Below the pieces are notes generated by a model, which was given only the letters and a program-made list of their open reading frames with translations, was not told where the DNA came from and made no database searches. Made by a program: the position numbers and the translations under genes. A stretch of 64,000 bases of DNA from Octopus vulgaris (lineage: Eukaryota), in assembly GCA_951406725.2 (NCBI GenBank), contig OX597825.1, forward strand, positions 45,570,001-45,634,000, written 5' to 3'. Position 1 is the stretch's first letter. The number at the start of each line of letters is the position of its first letter. Shown here piece by piece: positions 22,607 through 64,000 of the stretch.

Positions 22607-22824
22607 GTTGTGACACTTACTTGTTACGTGTAGTTTTGTTCTAGATGGCTGATAGACAACTCAATGAAGGCATTGTTATTGTTTTACGTGTTTATTTACT
22701 TTACTTGTTACACGAACTGTCAACATCTATACATTAGACACAGTTCGTACTGTTTACTAACAAAATTGTCCCAAAAGTATATACGATCATGTTTTAGTAA
22801 TGGGATCTTGAGTACATATATAAC
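22607..22824 (-). mobile_element. Solo LTR related to the Gypsy LTR at 13510-13740
   Basis: The reverse complement shares TTGTTAGTAAACAGTA.GAACTG and AAATAAACACGTAAAAC.ATAACAATGCCTTCA.TGAGTTGTCTATCA with 13574-13711. Confidence 0.7.
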
Positions 22825-23707
22825 ACATTTGTGACATTTTTTTTTCTTGTGTGAAACACTTTTCAGACTAATAGCTTTTTGCTATATATATGTTAACCGA
22901 TTATTAAAATGATTATATTTATTAAAGAGATAACTGAAATCACAAAAATTTCTTGTTTTTCAGTATACACATTTGTGACATTTCATTTTTGTGAGAAACA
23001 TTTTTCTGACTAATAGGTTTTTGCTATACATATGGTAGCCGATTATTAATCAGATTATATTTATCAAAGAGATAACTGAAATCACTTTTCAGAAAACAAA
23101 ATGTGTCAAAATATTGCAAATAAGCATAAAAACGAGAAACGAATGGCAAATGCGAATTTCATGTTATTTAGTGTTCTATTTTGTGATTTATCATTTTTCA
23201 ACCAAACACTTTTCAGATTAATAACATTTTGTTAAATGTATGTTAGCTGATTGATAATACGATTGTATTTATCAAAGAGATCGCTAAGCTTGAAAATATG
23301 AAAAATATTGCAAATGCAAATTTCTTGTATTTCAGTCTACACATTTGTGACATTTCATTTTTGTGAGAAACATTTTTCTGACTAATAACACTAATAAACG
23401 TGAACAAACTTGCAAATGTTTTAAAAGGTTCAGTTGCATATCGAAACGATTTCATGGTCAGTGCTGTAACACGCCCACCACTCAAGTTTGCAAGTTTGTT
23501 CACGTTTTTATGCAATATTTTGACACATTTTGTTTTCTGAGAAGTGATTTCAGTTATCTCTTTGATAAAAATAATCTTATTTATAATCGGCTAACATATA
23601 TATAGCAAAATGTTATTAGTCAGAAAAATGTTTCTCACAAAAATGAAATGTCACAAATGTGTATACTGAAAAACATATATATATATATGTTAGCTGATTC
23701 ATAGTAC

Positions 23708-25498
23708 TGTAGCAATATCGTCTCTCATTGCTATCTTCACTGTTTGAGAAGAGTATTAAGAATAACCTCGATCGAGATTACAAACAGCTTTGGCTAGTTC
23801 AACATTGTTGCAAACACTAATTCGATTAGCTGACACGTTGGTCTCTACTACGCTCGCACCGCTGGTTATAACTTGGCGCAAAATGCCTCCGTTTATTTTC
23901 GCGCCATAGTTCCAAGCAGCCAATCACAGCTTTCCATTTCTGAAGTTCATTGGGAGCTATGTAAAGCTTATAAAAGAAGGTTTCTCAAACAAATATTCGT
24001 CTTAGGTTTCCAGTCCTTCTCAGGGCGAACCTCTGACCACACAGAGCTCTTCTTAGGCTTTTAGTTCTTTTAAGAGCTAAGTCTCTGACCACACAGAGCA
24101 TACTCGACCAAGTTCCAGTTCGAGGCAGGCGACCACCATTAATACAAGATGTTACAGATACCTCTCATACTGTTAGTGTGAAATATCACCATGAAGAAAA
24201 CGGTTACAGGATATCTATAACTAGAGAAAAATAACCAAGCAGAAAATAATGAAGAAGCAGCAAGAACCCTAGAGAAAAAAAAAAAAAAGATATATATATA
24301 TAATGTCAATTTTATCGCCGTTTTGTCGTAGACAAAACGTCTGGCAAGAGGCTATATGTAGCAATATCGTCTCTCATTGCTATCTTCACTGTTTGAGAAG
24401 AGTATTAAGAATGACCTCGGTCGAGATTACAAACAGCTTTGGCTAGTTCAACATTGTTGTAAACACTAATTCGATTGGCTGACACGTTGGTCTCTACTAC
24501 GCTCGCACCGCTGGTTATAACTTGGCGCAAAATGCCTCCGTTTATTTTCGCGCCATAGTTCCAAGCAGCCAATCACAGCTTTCCATTTCTGAAGTTCACT
24601 GGGAGCCTGGTGAAGCTTATAAAGCAAGGTTTCTCAGACAAATATTCGTCTTAGGTTTCCAGTCCTTCTCAGGGCGAACCTCTGACCACACAAGAGCTCT
24701 TCTTAGGCTTTTAGTTCTTTTAAGAGCTAAGTGTCTGACCACACAGAGCATACTCGACCAAGTTCCAGTTCGAAAAGCAGGCGACCACCATTAATACTGT
24801 TAGTGTGAAATATCACCATGAAGAAAACGGTTACAGGATATCTATAACTAGAGAAAAATAGCCAAACAGAATATATAATGAAGAAGCAGCAAGAACCAAT
24901 CGACAAACATCGAAGATTTAATTTGTACACAAGACGACTACAGATTCAGCTATAGCGGTTCGGTGAAATTCTCGCCACGGAAAAAACGGCTACAGTAACA
25001 TGTCTGGAAGTATATTCATATCAAGAGAAAGATAAAAACAACGAGTGATTCAATTAATCTCAACTGCGACATGCAATACCTTGATATAGAACTCTTACGC
25101 TGTACCTCATAAACGGTAAATCAATTATCTGTTCTTGGGTTCTAGTTTCTTCTAAGAACTACCTTAAGCCATCTGTTATTACCTGTTGCCAGGCCGATAC
25201 CAACAACATGAACTGTGAATCAAATCCCATCGTCATTTCACTGGTCAGTACCTTTTTACGCCTAACGAACACACAGACACAAAAACATGCTAACGCTTAC
25301 GAACTCTTAGAATCCACATGATTGTAAAATATGTAAAATAAATAATGTATATATCTTAAAAAGAAATCTTGTTGTCATTCCAAACTTATGTGTATTGCCG
25401 CTGCATGTATTATATAGTCAGTAAATAAATTATTAAGAATGGGATCGCGTGCGACTGTCTCTTATACGGTACGACCAAGCGTGATCCTATTTCTTATA
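23708..25498 (+). mobile_element. Internally deleted LTR element: partial LTR (23708-24270) plus full ~1.14-kb LTR (24357-25498)
   Basis: Two near-identical copies start TGTAGCAATATC. The end TATTTCTTATA approximates the inverted terminus. GTAC is duplicated on both flanks, and the satellite reads through across the insertion. Confidence 0.75.
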
Positions 25499-26358
25499 GT
25501 ACGATTATATTTACCAAAGAGATCTCTGAAATCAGAAAACTTCACGATACAAATTGTCAAAATATTGCTAAGCTTCAAAATAGGAACAGAATTGGAAATG
25601 CAAATTTCATGCTTGCAGAGTGCTATTTACACATTTGTGATTTATCATTTTTCTGATAAAAACACTTTTCAGACAAATAATGTTTTGTTAATTATAAGTT
25701 AGCTGATTGATAATACGATTATATTTATCAAAGATATCCCTAAGCTTGAAAATATGAAAAATATTGCAAATGCAAATTTCTTGTTTTTCACTATACATAT
25801 TTGAAACATTTTATTTTTGACAGAAAAACTTTTCTGACTAATAACCTTTTGCTACATATATGTTAGTCGATTATTAATCACATTATAGTTATTAAAGAGA
25901 TAACTGAAATCAGAAACCTATTCAGAAAACAAAATGCGTCAAAATATTGCAAATAAACATAAAAATGTGAACAAAATAGCAAATGCGAATTATTTAGTGT
26001 TCTATTAATAAATTTGTGATTTATCATTTTTCAACCAAACACTTTTCAGATTAATAACGTTTTGTTAAATATATGTTAGCTGTTTGATAATTTATCAAAA
26101 GAGATCGCTAAGCTGGTAAATATAAAAAGGATTGCAAATGCAAATTTCTTGTTTTCAGTATACACATTTGTAACATTTCATTTTTGTGAGAAACACTTTT
26201 CTAATAACATTTCGCTATATATATGTTAGCCGATTATTAATCAGATTATATTTATCAAAGAGATAACTGAAATCACTTTTCAGAAAACCAAATGTGTCAA
26301 AATATTGCATATAAGCATAAAAATTTGAACAAACTTGCAAATGTTTTAAAAGGTTCAG

Positions 26359-26418
26359 TTGCGTATCGAAACGATTTCATGGTCAGTGCTGTAACACACC
26401 CTCCACTCATCAGTGCAA
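26359..26418 (-). ncRNA. Satellite type I hammerhead, copy 2
   Basis: UUGCA-CUGAUGA-GUGG..CCAU-GAAA-UCG-UUU-CGAU-A-CGCAA. Confidence 0.75.
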
Positions 26419-26468
26419 ACATAACCAGATACATAAATGTAAATACTAATAAATACCATAAATACTAC

Positions 26469-26512
<44 letters not shown>

Positions 26513-27396
26513 GTTGATTCATAAAACGATTATATTTACCGGAGAGATCTCTGAAATCAGAAAACTTCTCACGATATAAGCATAAAAACGTGAACGAAAT
26601 TGCAAATGCGAATTTCATGTTTTTTTATTGTTCTATTAACGCACTTGTGATTTATCATTTTTCCGATAAAAACACTTTTTAGACAAATAACGTTTCGAAA
26701 ATGCAATTTTCTTGTTTTTCAGTATGCACATTTGTGACATTTCATTTTTGTGAGAAACATTTTTCCGACTAATAACATTTTGCTATATATTAGCTGATTA
26801 ATAATACGATAATATTTATCAAAGATATTGCTAAGCTTGAAAATATGAAAATTACTGCAAATGAAATTTCTTGTTTTTCACTATACATATGTGACATTTT
26901 ATTTTTGACAGAAAAACTTTTTGCTATATATATATATATATTTATTAAAGAGATAACTGAAATCACTTTTCAGAAAACAAAATGTGTCAAAATATTGCAA
27001 ATAAGCATAAAAACGTGAACAAAATGGCAAATGCGAATTTCTTGTTATTTAGTGTTCTATTAATAAATTTGTGATTTATCATTTTTCAACCAAACATTTT
27101 CAGATTAATAACGTTTTGTTATTAATATATGTTAGCTGTTTGATAATAAGATTATATTTATGAAAAGTGATCGCTAAGCTTGTAAATATAAAAAGTATTG
27201 CAAATGCAAATTTCTTGTTTTTAGTATACACATTTGTATCATTTCATTTTTGTGAGAAACACTTTTCTAATAACATTTCGCTATAATCAGATTATATTTA
27301 TCAAAGAGATAACTGAAATCACTTTTCAGAAAACAAAATGTGTCAAAATATTGCATAAAAACGTGAACAAACTTGCAAATGTTTTAAAAGATTCAC

Positions 27397-27456
27397 TTGC
27401 GTATCGAAACGATTTCATGATCAGTGCTGTAACACGCCCACCACTCATCAGTGCAA
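27397..27456 (-). ncRNA. Satellite type I hammerhead, copy 3
   Basis: Same core, with stem II GUGGU/AUCAU. Confidence 0.75.
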
Positions 27457-28891
27457 ACATAACCGGCTACAAAAATATAAATACTAATAAATACCATGCG
27501 AATCCAACACATATATATGTTAGCTGATTCATAGTACGATTATATTTACCAAAGATTTGTGAAATCAGAAAACCTGACGATACAAATTGTCAAAATATTG
27601 CTAAGCTTCAAAATAGGAGCAAAATTGGAAATGCAACTTTCATGCTTTCACATGTGTGATTTATCATTTTTCTGATAAAAACACTTTTCAGACAAATAAC
27701 GTTTTGCAATATATATGTTAGCTGATTGATAATACGATTATATTTATAAAAGCTTGAAAATATGAAAATTATTGAAAACGCAAATTTCTTGTTTTTCACT
27801 GTACATATTTGTGACATTTTATTTTTGACAAAAAAACTTTTTGCTACATATATGTTAGTCGATTATTAATCACATGATATTTATTAAAGAGATAACTGAA
27901 ATCACTTTTCAGAAAACAAAATGTGTCAAAATATTGCAAATAAACAAAAATGTGAAAAAAATCGCAAATGCGAATTTCATGTCATTTAGTGTACTATCAA
28001 TAAATTTGTGATTTATCATTTTTCAGACAAACACTTTTAGGGCAAATAAACGTTTTGTTAACTGATTGATATTTATCAAAGAGATCGCTAAGCTTGAAAA
28101 TATGAAAACTATTGCAAATGCAAATTTCTTGTTTTTCAGTATACACATTTGTGACATTTTATTTTTGTGAGAAACATTTTTCTGAGTAATAACATTTTGC
28201 TATATATATGTTAGCCGATTATTAGATTATATTTATCAAAGAGATAACTGAAATCACTTTTCAGAAAACAAAATGTGTCAAAAAATTGCAAATAAGCATA
28301 AAAACGATTTCATGGTCAGTGCTGTCACACGCCCACCACTCATCAGTGCAAACATAACCAGATACATAAATATAAATACTAATAAACACCGTATAACATA
28401 TAAATATATATATTTATATGTTAGCTGATTCATAATACGATTATATTTACCAAAGAAATCTCTGAAATCAGAAAACTTCTCACGACACAGAAATGTGCCA
28501 AAGTATTGATAAGCTTGAAAATAGGAACAAAATTGCAAATGCAAATTTCAGGCTTATTAACACATTTGTGATTTATCATTTTTCTGACAAATAAAGTTTT
28601 AGCTGTTTGATAATAAGATTATATTTATCAAAAGAGATCGCTAAGCTTGTAAATATAAAAAATATTGCAAATGCAAATTTTTTGTTTTCAGTATACACAT
28701 TTGTGACAATTCCTTTTTGTGAGAAACACTTTTGTAATACCATTTTGCTATATATAGGTTAGCCGATTATTAATCAGATTATATTTATCAAAGAGATAAC
28801 TGAAATCACTTTTCAGAAAACAAAATGTGTCAAAATATTGCATATAAGCATAAAAATGTGAAGAAACTTTTCAAATGTTTAAAAGGTTCAG

Positions 28892-28950
28892 TTGCGTATC
28901 GAAACGATTTCATGGTACTGCTGTAACACGCCCACCACTCATCAGTGCAA
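28892..28950 (-). ncRNA. Satellite type I hammerhead, copy 5
   Basis: Same core, with stem II GUGGU/ACCAU. Confidence 0.75.
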
Positions 28951-30181
28951 ACATAACCGGATACAAATAATAATGCGAATAAGTATAAAAACTTGAACGA
29001 AATTGCAAATGCGAATTTCATATTTTTTTAAATGTATTATTAACGCACTTGTGATTTATCATTTTTCCGATAAAAACACTTTTCAGACAAATAACGTTTA
29101 TATGTTAGCTGATTGTTGATACGATTATATTTATCAAAGTTATCGCTAAGCTTAAAAATATGAAAAATATTGCAAATGCAAATTTCTTGTTTTTCAGTAT
29201 ACACATTTGTGACATTTCATTTTTGTGAGAAACATTTTTCTGACTAATAACATTTTGCTATGTATACGTTAGCCGATTATTAAACAGAAAACAAAATGTT
29301 TCAAAATATTGCAAATGTGTGATCTTTTGGATAAATATAATCTTATCAGTCAGTTAATTATTTTTACCCAAGCATCACTGAAATCATAAATGTTTTCAGA
29401 AAGCAAAACGTATCAAACTATTGCAAATAAGCATAAAAAAAGTGAACAAAATTGCTAATAGAAATTTATTGTTTTTTAACACTTATTTGCAATATTTTGA
29501 CACATTTAATTTCTAAAGACTTGTGAGATTTTAGTGATCTTCTGGATAAATTTAATCACGATTGTTTTCAGAAAACAAAATGTGTCAAAATATTGCAAAT
29601 AAGCATAATAAAGTGAACAAAATTGCTAATACACATTTGTTTTTTTAGTTCTTATTTGCAATATTTTGACATATATTTTGACACATATTTTGTTTTCTGA
29701 AAAATTTGAGATTTTAGTGCTCTCTTGGATAAATATAATTTTATTATCAGATCACTGAAATCACAAATGTTTTCAGAAAACAAAACGTATCAAAATATTG
29801 CAAATAAGAATAAAAAAGTGAACAAAATTGCTTCTTTAAATTTGTTGTTTTTTAGCACTTATTTGCAATATTTTGACACATTTTGTTTTCTGAAAATGTT
29901 TGAGATTTTAGTGATCTCTTGGATAAATATAATATTATTAGTCAACTTATATTTACCCAATTTCTTGTTTTTCAGTATACATATTTGTGAGATTTCATTT
30001 TTGTGAGAAACACTTTTCTGACTAACATTTTGCTATATATATGTTAGCCGATCATTAATCAGATTACATTTATCAAAGATTTAACTGAAATCATTAAAAG
30101 TTTTCAGAAAAAAAATGTGTCAAAATATTGCATATAAGCATAAAAACGTGAACAAACTTGCAAATGTTTTAAAAGGTTCAG

Positions 30182-30241
30182 TTGCGTATCGAAACGATTT
30201 CATGGTCAGTGCTGTAACACGACCTTCACTCATCAGTGCAA
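30182..30241 (-). ncRNA. Satellite type I hammerhead, copy 6 (stem II weakened)
   Basis: Same core, but the stem II 5' strand is mutated to GUGAA. Confidence 0.6.
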
Positions 30242-30290
30242 ACATAACCAGATACATAAATATAAATACTAATAAATACCATACGTATAT

Positions 30291-30349
<59 letters not shown>

Positions 30350-30363
30350 GTTTTATGAATAAG

Positions 30364-30421
<58 letters not shown>

Positions 30422-31274
30422 AGCTGATTCATAAAACGATTATATTTACCGAAGAGTTAACTGAAATCACAAAAATTTTCAGAAAACAAAATGTGTCAAA
30501 ATATTGCGATTAAGCATAAAAACGTGAACAAAATTGCAAATACGAATTTTATGTTTTTTTCGTGTACTAATAACACATTTGTGATTTATCATTTTTCTGA
30601 TAGAAACACTTTTCAGACAAATAGCGTTTTGTTAATTATATGTTAGCTGATTGATAATACGATTATATTTATCAAAGATATCGCTATGCTTGAAAATATG
30701 TAAATTACTGCAAATGCAAATTTCTTGTTTTTCTCTATACATATTTGTAACATTTTATTTTTGACAAAAAAACTTTTCTGACTAATTTTGCTATATATAT
30801 GTTAGCCGATTATTAAACAGATTATATTTATGTTAGCTGATTCATAATACGATTATATTTACCAAATATCTAAGGGATATTAAATATCCAATATACTTCT
30901 GGATGTGTGCCTAATTATTTATAACCAGTCAAACCGTCCAACCCATGCTAGCATGGAAAGCAGACGTTAAATGACGTTAAAAACAACATTCGAGCGTGGT
31001 CGTGGTCGTTGCTTACTATTGCATGGCAATATCGCAATTGGGTATTAGGTATGGGTGGGCGTAAATTAGCAATTTACCCAGGATTTATAAGGCAAATAAG
31101 TAAATGGAAGAGGATATCCAATAGACAAACATCAACCAGTAAACATTCAATTATAACTAATTAGTAAATGATTACAAACATATGTGTTGATACAAATTAA
31201 CGAATGAAATATGTCAATAACTACAGAAACAGATATATACATCTACATATACTATATATATATATATATATATA

Positions 31275-32610: not shown

Positions 32611-32853
32611 TGCAATTGTTTTCGTTCCAGCATCTCCCTATATATATATATATAGGGAGATGTACTCACATAGCAAGTGATTTGATCTGAGATCGTGTGC
32701 TGGAACGAAAACAATTGCAGCATGGAAGGTGTTTGTAAGCCATTTAAGAAACACACAAAAGCAGTTCGATTCACTTCAACATTTAAGTTGAAGTGAATCG
32801 AATGGCTTTTGTGTGTTTCTTAAATGACTTACAAACACCTTCCATGCTGCAAT

Positions 32854-35110: not shown

Positions 35111-35151
<41 letters not shown>

Positions 35152-35198
35152 TATTAGAGACAAAACCACTATTTTGCAAAAATGTATGTGTGTGTTTA

Positions 35199-35632
35199 TA
35201 TATTTAGGGCTAAACCACTAGGTGGATAACCATACACTAGATCACATACGATCTAACTACAAAAAAAGAATGTTCTCCAGAGAAAATTCAGCAAACACCA
35301 GAACATAAGCGGGCAAGACAGATGAAAGTTATATAAAAATCAAGAATTAATCATATACCGGTTTCGTCTGTTACCGAATAAATTACTTACATAATCCTTC
35401 ATCCGCAGACTCATCAGTATGATCGTTCCAATTCAATATAATTTGAAAAACTAAACACCGGTTGTCCATATAAAACTAGACATGTGTTTAGTTCTACGGA
35501 TTACACTGGGGTTATTTTCAAATGTCTAAGTTCTGGTGCGCTAAATTCTCTGGAGAACATTCTTTCTTTGTAGTTAGATCGTATGTGATCTTCTAGCATA
35601 TGGTTATCCACCTAGTGGTATAGCCCTAAATA
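35199..35632. repeat. Penelope-type inverted terminal structure: ~90-bp arms enclosing a hammerhead
   Basis: 35199-35288 is the reverse complement of 35543-35632, with small indels. Confidence 0.75.
35350..35423 (-). ncRNA. Minimal type I hammerhead
   Basis: AUCAUA-CUGAUGA-GUCUG..CAGAC-GAAAC-CG-GUA-UAUGAU, with perfect stems I and II and palindrome ACCGGU. Confidence 0.85.
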
Positions 35633-62705: not shown

Positions 62706-64000
62706 TAGTAAGCCAACTGGAAAGAAAGTCAAAAGGAGAGCAAGCTAAAACGAGTGCAAGCCAAAAGGAGAGCAGGCCAATTGTGGTAGTAGTGGCTAAT
62801 TCAAATTTGTTTTTTAGTACTTATTTGCAATATTTTGACAGATTTTGTATCCTGAAAACTTTTGAGACTTTAATGATCTCTTGGATAAATATAATCTTAT
62901 TATCAATCTGTTAACTTATATTTACCCAAGAGATCAATCAAGTCACAAAAGTTTTCAGAAAACAAAATGTCAAAATATTGCAAATAAGCATAAAAAAGTG
63001 AACACAATTACTAATTCAAATTTGTATTTTCGTACTTATTTGCAATAAGGAGAGCAAGCAAACTGGAGAGCAAGCCAAAAGGAGTGCAAGGCAAAAGGAG
63101 AGCAAGCCGAAATGAGAGCAAGCAGAAAGGAGAGTAAGCCAACTGGAGAGCAAGCCAAAAGGAGTGCAAAGCAAAAGGAGAGCAAGCAGAAAGGAGAGTA
63201 AGCCAACTGGAAAGAAAGTCAAAAGGAGAGCAAGCTAAAAGGAGTGCAAGCCAAAAGGAGAGCAGGCCAAAAGGAGAAGTCAAAAGTTTTCAGAAAACAA
63301 AATGTCTCAAAATATTGCAAATAAGCATAAAGAATAGAACACAATTGCTAATTCAAATTTGTTATTTTTTAGTACTTAATTGCTATATTTTGACACATTT
63401 TGAATCCTGAAAACATTTGAGACTTTAGTGATCGCTTGGATAAATATAATATTATCAAAGTTAACATCACTAACAAAATGTGTCAAAATATTGCAAATAA
63501 GCATAAAAAAGCGAACAAAATTGCTATGCAGTTTGTATCCTGAAAACTTTTGAGACTTTAGTGATCTCTTGGATAGATATAATCTTATCATAAAGTGAAC
63601 ACAATTGCTAATTCAAATTTGTTGTTTTTCGTACTTATTTACAATATGGAGAGCAAGCCAAAGGGAGTGCAAGGCAAAAGGAGAGCAAGCCAAAAGGATA
63701 GCAAGCAGAAAGGAGAGTAAGCTAACTGGGAAGAAAGCCAAAAGGAGCAAGCTAAATGGAGTGTAAGGCAAAAGGAGAGCAAGCCAACTGGAGAGCAAGC
63801 CAAAAGAAGTGCAAGGCAAAAGGAGAGCAAGCAGAAAGGAGAGCAAGCCAACTGGAGAGCAAGCGAAAAAGAAGAGCAAGCCAAAAGGAGAGCAAGCAGG
63901 AAGGAGAGTAAGCCAACTGGAAAGCAAGTCAAAAGGAGAGCAAGCTTTAGAAAGGAGTGCAAGCCAAAAGACAAAAGTTTTCAGAAATTTGTCAAAATAT
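62706..64000. repeat. 16-bp minisatellite arrays (GGAGAGCAAGCCAAAA variants) within the fold-back satellite backbone
   Basis: Arrays at 62706-62780, 63047-63282 and 63648-63970. The backbone matches 29290-29960. Confidence 0.85.

Follow-up and report, generated by a model that had tools for sequence, protein, structure and literature searches.

The hammerhead satellites of newts, schistosomes and, reportedly, cave crickets consist of tandem non-coding DNA in which short, uniform monomers are built around a type I hammerhead ribozyme. For newts and schistosomes, the repeated type I hammerheads are described as cited in PMC7229834. Metazoan non-long-terminal-repeat (non-LTR) retrozymes likewise have a type I hammerhead in a non-coding, low-GC repeat (PMC7229834; 10.64898/2026.07.22.740005); the animal representatives are regarded as non-autonomous derivatives of Penelope elements (10.64898/2026.07.22.740005), and a palindromic stem III with dimeric cleavage has been reported for metazoan type I hammerheads (PMC4209133; PMC7229834). 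The pseudo-LTR hammerheads of Penelope-like elements are described with a long stem II, a 5-bp proximal stem I and a palindromic loop III (PMC4209133; 10.1101/2021.04.23.441226), and the insertions of these elements with partial tandems and inverted, 5′-truncated pieces (10.1101/2021.04.23.441226). Here we analyse a 64,000-nt stretch of the 2.8-Gb Octopus vulgaris genome (contig OX597825.1, here C12, positions 45,570,001 to 45,634,000; hereafter the window), in which an AT-rich satellite array contains six GC-richer modules with a hammerhead motif on the minus strand.

Like the systems above, the array is non-coding and low in GC and has a type I hammerhead, with a palindromic stem III that would suit dimeric cleavage and with the long stem II, 5-bp proximal stem I and palindromic loop III of the pseudo-LTR ribozymes. 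It differs from retrozymes in containing only ~125 bp of a monomer, placed within an unrelated satellite at irregular spacing and with a mismatch at the cut site, and from the newt, schistosome and cave cricket satellites in that the ribozyme appears to have been imported late, most of the satellite family being without it. We consider it probable that the array carries a captured passenger ribozyme, predicted to be a poor cutter, that was multiplied together with the satellite at the DNA level. The array is likely not a ribozyme-driven satellite. In the literature searched, which excluded most subscription journals, we found no paper on octopus or cephalopod retrozymes or on the capture of a hammerhead by an unrelated satellite.

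The module belongs to a dispersed retrozyme-like family

Of the 40 module matches listed in the genome, 34 lie outside the window. At 22 of the 24 outside loci that were compared with the array, the likeness is essentially limited to the module and to simple repeats, yet the outside loci have a longer unit in common, with monomers of 477, 489 and 495 bp at three loci; the module therefore belongs to a dispersed element, which we call the parent family. We fetched 67 of its loci (59 mapped and 8 added later). The genome searches scored at most 40 candidates each (of 341–893 for the parent family), so that counts given here are lower bounds.

The mapped loci have the anatomy of Penelope-type insertions, with pieces in both orientations at 26 of 59 and more than one monomer in a single run at 14 of 59. 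The elements are circularly permuted and frequently inverted at the 5′ end. Their 5′ ends are scattered, while 38 of 94 3′ ends fall at positions 242–260 after the cut site, most of them entering a TA-type microsatellite. Another group of 3′ ends, around position 166, shifted with the choice of reference and was dropped. The case for cleaved RNA from 5′ ends clustering at the cut site was likewise rejected as weak: starts within −10 to +12 of the cut numbered 10 of 94 (p=0.013) with one reference and 4 of 95 (p=0.68) with another, and only 2–3 were clean on inspection. The family is old, its copies being 70–88% identical.

With a permuted monomer of 477–495 bp, a type I hammerhead, mostly solo or partial-tandem copies, some of them longer than one unit, and a genome that contains Penelope-like elements, the parent family resembles the described retrozymes; its partial tandems, 5′ inversions and microsatellite 3′ ends are those of Penelope-type insertions. 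It differs from the former in being known here from DNA alone and in that two complete monomers in tandem were found at none of the 67 dispersed loci (best 40 of 341–893 candidates scored), and from Penelope-like pseudo-LTRs in that no reverse transcriptase (RT) or GIY-YIG frame is contiguous with it at any of 71 loci. Five of these 71 have nearby, non-contiguous Penelope fragments, and the window contains no RT or GIY-YIG frame. Matches to the parent monomer in three sequencing runs guessed to be RNA were short, at 80–95%, with no contig over the hammerhead, although contigs cannot show absence. We classify the parent as a Penelope-mobilised, non-LTR-retrozyme-like family with a putative helper, in which most of the retrozyme features tested are present.

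Candidate helpers are abundant. GIY-YIG matches occur in 148 of the 150 places scored (6136 candidates), and the genome holds intact 781-aa frames that combine RT and GIY-YIG, the two that were inspected ending at (TA)n. Such frames, with RT, a cysteine-rich linker and GIY-YIG, lie on contig C16 at L234:2745-5087 and L235, among many copies; their 3′ ends bear a minimal hammerhead-like motif whose core is the variant UUGAUAA, and stop at (TA)n. None of 42 GIY-YIG loci and stretches, a small sample of the 6136 candidates, contains parent family sequence. The helper stays putative because no Penelope-like frame examined shares sequence with the parent family.

Compensatory base-pair changes between two subfamilies indicate that the parent hammerhead is a true type I ribozyme motif, as the original prediction had supposed for the array. 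The second subfamily has paired changes in stem I, in the stem II extension and in stem III, which there forms a perfect 12-base palindrome. Of the 938 cells in a set of 43 rows (39 from dispersed copies and 4 from the window), 87% pair, against 27–39% in slid controls. Changes on both sides of a pair occur in 38 cells, against 19 ± 3 in shuffles (reached in 0 of 500); these cells count related sequences and amount to about four independent double changes, some of which CpG decay could mimic. Two further measures, counting pairs or types, did not beat the shuffles (120 and 250 of 500). The comparison of core with flank conservation that the original prediction proposed gives a positive result in the dispersed family, with core columns conserved at 0.90 against 0.84 in matched flanks (p=0.014) among copies partly found by a hammerhead query, which biases them toward the core; no such difference is detectable within the array. 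The core is intact in only 16 of the 45 copies that span the motif. Of 53 dispersed copies, 51 have U immediately after the cut, and none has C. With its two covarying subfamilies, the parent appears to be a hitherto undescribed retrozyme family of cephalopods. A further hammerhead at C4:100.760 Mb (L239:7150-7215, minus strand), similar in build with the same stem I but a different stem II, lies in a short insert between TA runs and is probably another retrozyme-like family.

The satellite is a separate family that probably captured the fragment

The satellite occurs on many contigs as 141-bp arrays (C27), large patchworks and small dispersed pieces. The hammerhead is absent at 17 of the 19 other satellite places fetched, including the large arrays on C27, C19 and C14 and on C12 to the right of the window, and the hammerhead-free arrays are equally rich in inversions. 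The two places with a hammerhead are C7:109.40 Mb and a near-duplicate on C13. The satellite is a family separate from the hammerhead element. GC content is 44–47% in the modules and ~25% in the satellite. The modular satellite context that had been proposed is borne out. Near contig ends, the satellite is found on C17, C19 and C23, and on C7 it lies beside telomeric repeats.

The hammerhead-free array on C12 is ~15 kb long and starts at the right end of the window (62800-63600; C12:45.634-45.648 Mb), near the contig middle. Lone satellite pieces also stand in unrelated sequence at L112:5137-5320 and L113:5022-5210, one inside a small terminal-inverted-repeat element and the other forming a fold-back with 12-bp inverted ends. 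The satellite appears to move as short, hammerhead-free DNA patches.

In the C12 array and on C7, the retrozyme piece has displaced part of a satellite monomer, with both joins in the same place, and each join has a short word common to donor and satellite. In a midpoint-rooted tree of the captured stretch (43 rows and 126 columns), with a bootstrap that had not fully settled, the eight chimeric rows all fall into a single group (support 98/92) that lies within the younger subfamily, among 35 dispersed rows. These eight are the four complete window copies and four of the five C7 copies, partial copies being excluded, and window and C7 copies form separate sub-groups. The shared joins and the single nested clade together point to one capture.

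The chimera was found at three places among the 40 candidates scored of 73. Its C7 and C13 loci (L091:6270-9180, C7:109.398-109.401 Mb; L102:3530-6380, C13:22.78 Mb) are 98.8% identical over 1.16 kb of flank and 81–88% identical in the repeats, where TA runs abound, and the C13 copy may be a mis-assembly. In four C7 copies, stem III is broken and GUAA replaces GAAA, whose A13 we take to be essential for the hammerhead; these broken-core copies sit in a 1057-bp tandem with telomeric repeats. C7 also holds an inverted copy of the U form, which resembles the fold-back copy in the window.

At C7/C13, interstitial telomeric repeats alternate with satellite–hammerhead units and start at short matching words (G-rich strand), in the manner of new telomere addition at breaks, and the locus may be an internalised chromosome end. 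The alternation of hammerhead-bearing units with telomeric repeats recalls the Athena/Terminon telomeric retroelements, for which an encoded RT and C-rich telomeric repeats directly after the sense hammerhead are described (PMC6431247). In the C7 array, by contrast, the G-rich repeats lie on the hammerhead strand, the cores are broken and there is no match to a Penelope-like frame; a Terminon-type reading of C7 was rejected on polarity. The window itself contains no telomeric repeats.

The array hammerheads are predicted to cut poorly

The pattern CTGATGA-N(5-35)-GAAA matches the window 10 times, against 2.2 ± 1.5 expected, a count reached in 0 of 100 shuffles. Five matches are array modules on the minus strand, and the sixth module (23434) is without the start of the core; all six lie where the original prediction had placed them. 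The three-helix type I core (CUGANGA...GAAA...UH) with an open stem I is present in four of the six. In the complete copies, stem III has 4 bp and is capped by a UUU loop, stem II is long and interrupted, and the 5 bp of stem I are followed, past an internal loop, by the 4-bp helix GGUU/AACC. Cleavage is predicted after AUA, at the sites given in Table 1 and at 23439 in the truncated copy. Of the minus-strand fold first drawn, the core therefore stands, but its stem II (GUGGU/ACCAU) is exact only in the partial copies and at 28892 (GUGGA stands at 26359, AUCAU at 27397 and GUGAA at 30182), and stem I is longer by the GGUU/AACC helix.

The innermost stem I pair at the cut site is A·C, and hence unpaired, in all four complete copies, while the copy at 23434 has U at this position and a core interrupted by a fold-back duplication; both points agree with what had been noted before. 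For trans-acting minimal ribozymes, a mismatched base directly after the cut is reported to slow cleavage 500-fold or more and AUA to be a slow cleavage triplet (PMC3138052), and mismatches of the innermost stem I are reported as the most harmful to cleavage (PMC8495972). The A·C form of the array hammerheads is accordingly predicted to cut poorly; the attenuated cleavage that had been proposed holds as a prediction from this pair and the published mismatch effect.

Energy folding favours the hammerhead neither in the window, where another fold has the lowest energy (z −0.2 to +0.8; the forced hammerhead lies 1.4–5.9 kcal/mol above the minimum), nor in the five dispersed copies folded, and we use it neither for nor against the motif. 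Rfam gave no hammerhead match for the modules (E up to 1, then up to 10) or for one dispersed copy, and its models suit long stem II variants poorly, the window's other hammerhead reaching 17.4 bits against a cut-off of 34. This unrelated type I hammerhead (35350-35423, minus strand, inside ~35140-35625; best model Hammerhead_1) lies 5 kb from the array between inverted repeats and ends at a (TA)n run. Its loop III is the palindrome CCGG and its stem II is long; it is another Penelope- or retrozyme-type insertion.

Origin and amplification of the array

The exact 23-mer with the C form has four genome occurrences, all in the array, and the U form has 11. Because dispersed copies never have C and the C 23-mer is confined to this locus, C arose in the array and was then copied. 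Among the four complete window copies, divergence is 5.5% in the hammerhead, 6.3% in the adjacent satellite and 14% in the retrozyme 5′ flank. Neither truncated window copy breaks at the cut site, and unit lengths vary twofold, from 0.6 to 1.3 kb.

These observations fit a passenger ribozyme. The parent family would have spread as RNA that cleaved itself, perhaps as a dimer through the palindromic stem III, and would have been reverse-transcribed by a Penelope-like element at (TA)n sites. A ~125-bp piece may then have been captured by microhomology-guided template switching or gene conversion, and the present array may have been built through unequal exchange, slippage and fold-back events, with the LTR-like repeat probably inserted after the array had formed.

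Several points weigh against this reading, beginning with the kinship of the covarying rows and the query bias mentioned above. All 11 core positions are identical in the four complete copies (chance p=0.17); four intact cores give little power, and weak selection on the array core is conceivable. No autonomous element that shares sequence with the parent family was found among 71 family loci and 42 GIY-YIG loci and stretches. The chimera has also reached at least two contigs. Finally, the fold-back at 23483 beside a 5′-truncated, U-bearing hammerhead with TA-rich bounds resembles dispersed copies and the inversions reported for Penelope-like insertions (10.1101/2021.04.23.441226). This last point is offset by the equal richness in inversions of the hammerhead-free arrays. 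An early RNA step is nonetheless a minor possibility, because of the Penelope-like fold-back and the chimera on a second chromosome.

Such a step is central to the alternative that survives best, in which the chimeric unit was a short-lived non-autonomous retroelement: read-through RNA of the satellite and a U-form hammerhead would have been reverse-transcribed by a Penelope-like enzyme, making the join or spreading it, and later local copies would have arisen through DNA. The fold-back has a comparable inverted U-form counterpart on C7, the joins on C12 and C7/C13 are identical, the short words shared at both joins fit a template switch, and the genome has active-looking Penelope-like frames. 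However, hammerhead-free arrays are just as inverted, the chimera occurs at only the three places found, and dispersed satellite pieces without a hammerhead exist too. We judge this alternative unlikely.

A related scenario, which we hold to be doubtful, is that a telomere-associated satellite was mobilised by the retrozyme hammerhead that it had acquired; the chimeric RNA would have been cut, reverse-transcribed by Penelope and seeded on new chromosomes, once amid telomeric repeats, and the slow-cutting A·C form would still be processing antisense satellite RNA. If true, a satellite would here have been caught gaining ribozyme-assisted retrotransposition.

The original prediction was of a large, modular ribozyme satellite that may be amplified through RNA; in a fuller form of this view, a retrozyme satellite would be copied through rolling-circle RNA, the A·C pair weakening cleavage so that multimers persist. 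Complete cores do follow each other at 26364 and 27402, the core is unchanged in all four complete copies, retrozyme units of up to 972 bp are reported (10.64898/2026.07.22.740005), and stem III could pair between copies (duplex −7.9 kcal/mol against −1.0 kcal/mol for the hairpin). But the hammerhead is a fragment of a dispersed element in a satellite that is mostly without it, the units differ in length and make-up without a tandem period, copies do not break at the cut site, and the C form is local. C7, moreover, multiplied copies with dead cores, and the hammerhead diverges about as fast as the satellite. Amplification of the array through RNA therefore finds little place here, and we regard it as quite improbable.

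That the host retains the ribozyme to trim antisense satellite transcripts to unit-length RNAs with a chromatin or telomere role is very improbable, since the satellite copies near contig ends or beside telomeric repeats and the four intact cores are outweighed by large arrays without a hammerhead and by the lack of any sign of selection in the array.

Array layout and neighbouring features

The satellite patch (8.06 kb, of which 1.8 kb is the insert) is composed of degenerate monomers of 140–220 bp, mostly uniform in orientation with some pieces inverted; it contains no open reading frame of 150 aa. The modules are spaced at 1130 (insert removed), 1038, ~900, ~590 and 1290 bp, in agreement with the 0.6–1.3 kb first estimated. 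A hammerhead in each higher-order unit, as originally described, is not what we find: Tandem Repeats Finder, with periods up to 2000 and with the published 2 7 7 parameters included, detects no period across the modules, and the complete motif is present in four of six units. The array is a patchwork of degenerate monomers without a regular higher-order structure. In composition it resembles a retrozyme, being non-coding, with GC below 45–50% and with no LTR, primer-binding site or polypurine tract of its own (the LTR-like piece is a later insert); by the tandem-monomer test, with spacing of 590–1290 bp, four of six units complete and no detected period, it is not a retrozyme array.

Table 1. 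Coordinates of the features of the array within the window
Feature	Position	Strand	Remarks
AT-rich satellite patch	22810..30866		Broken up by the LTR-like insert and six hammerhead modules
Truncated hammerhead module	23427..23484	-	Ends within the CUGAUGA core; ancestral U at first stem I pair; spacer of fold-back duplication
Inverted satellite arm	23483..23675	-	Abuts the truncated hammerhead; fold-back duplication, spacer ~70 bp
Solo-LTR-like insertion	23708..25498	+	TG...TA ends; 4-bp target duplication GTAC; outside the ribozyme unit
Retrozyme-derived fragment, ~125 bp	26344..26470	-	~45 bp 5′ flank, hammerhead and ~10 bp 3′ flank; takes the place of part of a satellite monomer, bounded by short shared words
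Complete type I hammerhead motif	26352..26426	-	Core 26375-26413; predicted cut after A at 26364; A·C at first stem I pair
Complete hammerhead motif	27390..27464	-	Predicted cut after 27402; A·C mismatch; additional G·U in stem II
Partial hammerhead module	28302..28359	-	Loop III onward lost via 5-bp microhomology into satellite; without cut site
Complete hammerhead motif	28885..28958	-	Predicted cut after 28897; A·C mismatch
Satellite patchwork without hammerhead	29317..29945		Short pieces, orientation alternating
Complete hammerhead core, stem II damaged	30175..30249	-	Predicted cut after 30187; A·C mismatch

The LTR insertion reported earlier is real (Table 1). It comprises a 560-bp partial copy followed by a complete 1.14-kb copy at 24357-25498; copies elsewhere are 89–97% identical, and all six that were printed have a 4-bp duplication, one of them mismatched. 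The insert is younger than the array and arrived afterwards. The repeat ends in TA instead of CA, and has deep contigs in runs guessed to be RNA.

Assembly artefact as the source of the array was rejected for this window. Array sequence exists beyond this assembly, with matching contigs in the DNA-like run X8 and in runs guessed to be RNA. Contigs from three of the latter cover parts of the array at a depth of 2–5; they are silent on expression and cleavage. One 254-nt contig, also from a run guessed to be RNA and likewise silent on cleavage, equals 27307-27560 without a difference and spans the 27402 cut site.

A predicted exon at 54995-55660 matches proteins of Octopus vulgaris (95–96%) and O. 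bimaculoides (89%), and all exons of the nearby predicted protein P0001 that map to the window lie at or to the right of 50927. The public gene prediction P0003 counts translated satellite (29783-29923 and 62817-63046) as coding exons, and this model is probably partly wrong. A near-perfect hairpin of ~140 bp at 32715-32853, with only sub-threshold matches to microRNA families, is probably a fold-back repeat.

Implications

The finding alters no general principle. It does suggest that the route to a hammerhead satellite can run in reverse, with an existing satellite acquiring a ribozyme fragment, as opposed to a retrozyme growing into a satellite, and that tandem hammerheads in satellites need not imply amplification through RNA. 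The natural U and C forms would provide a simple test of the cut-site pair in a full-length, possibly dimeric ribozyme.

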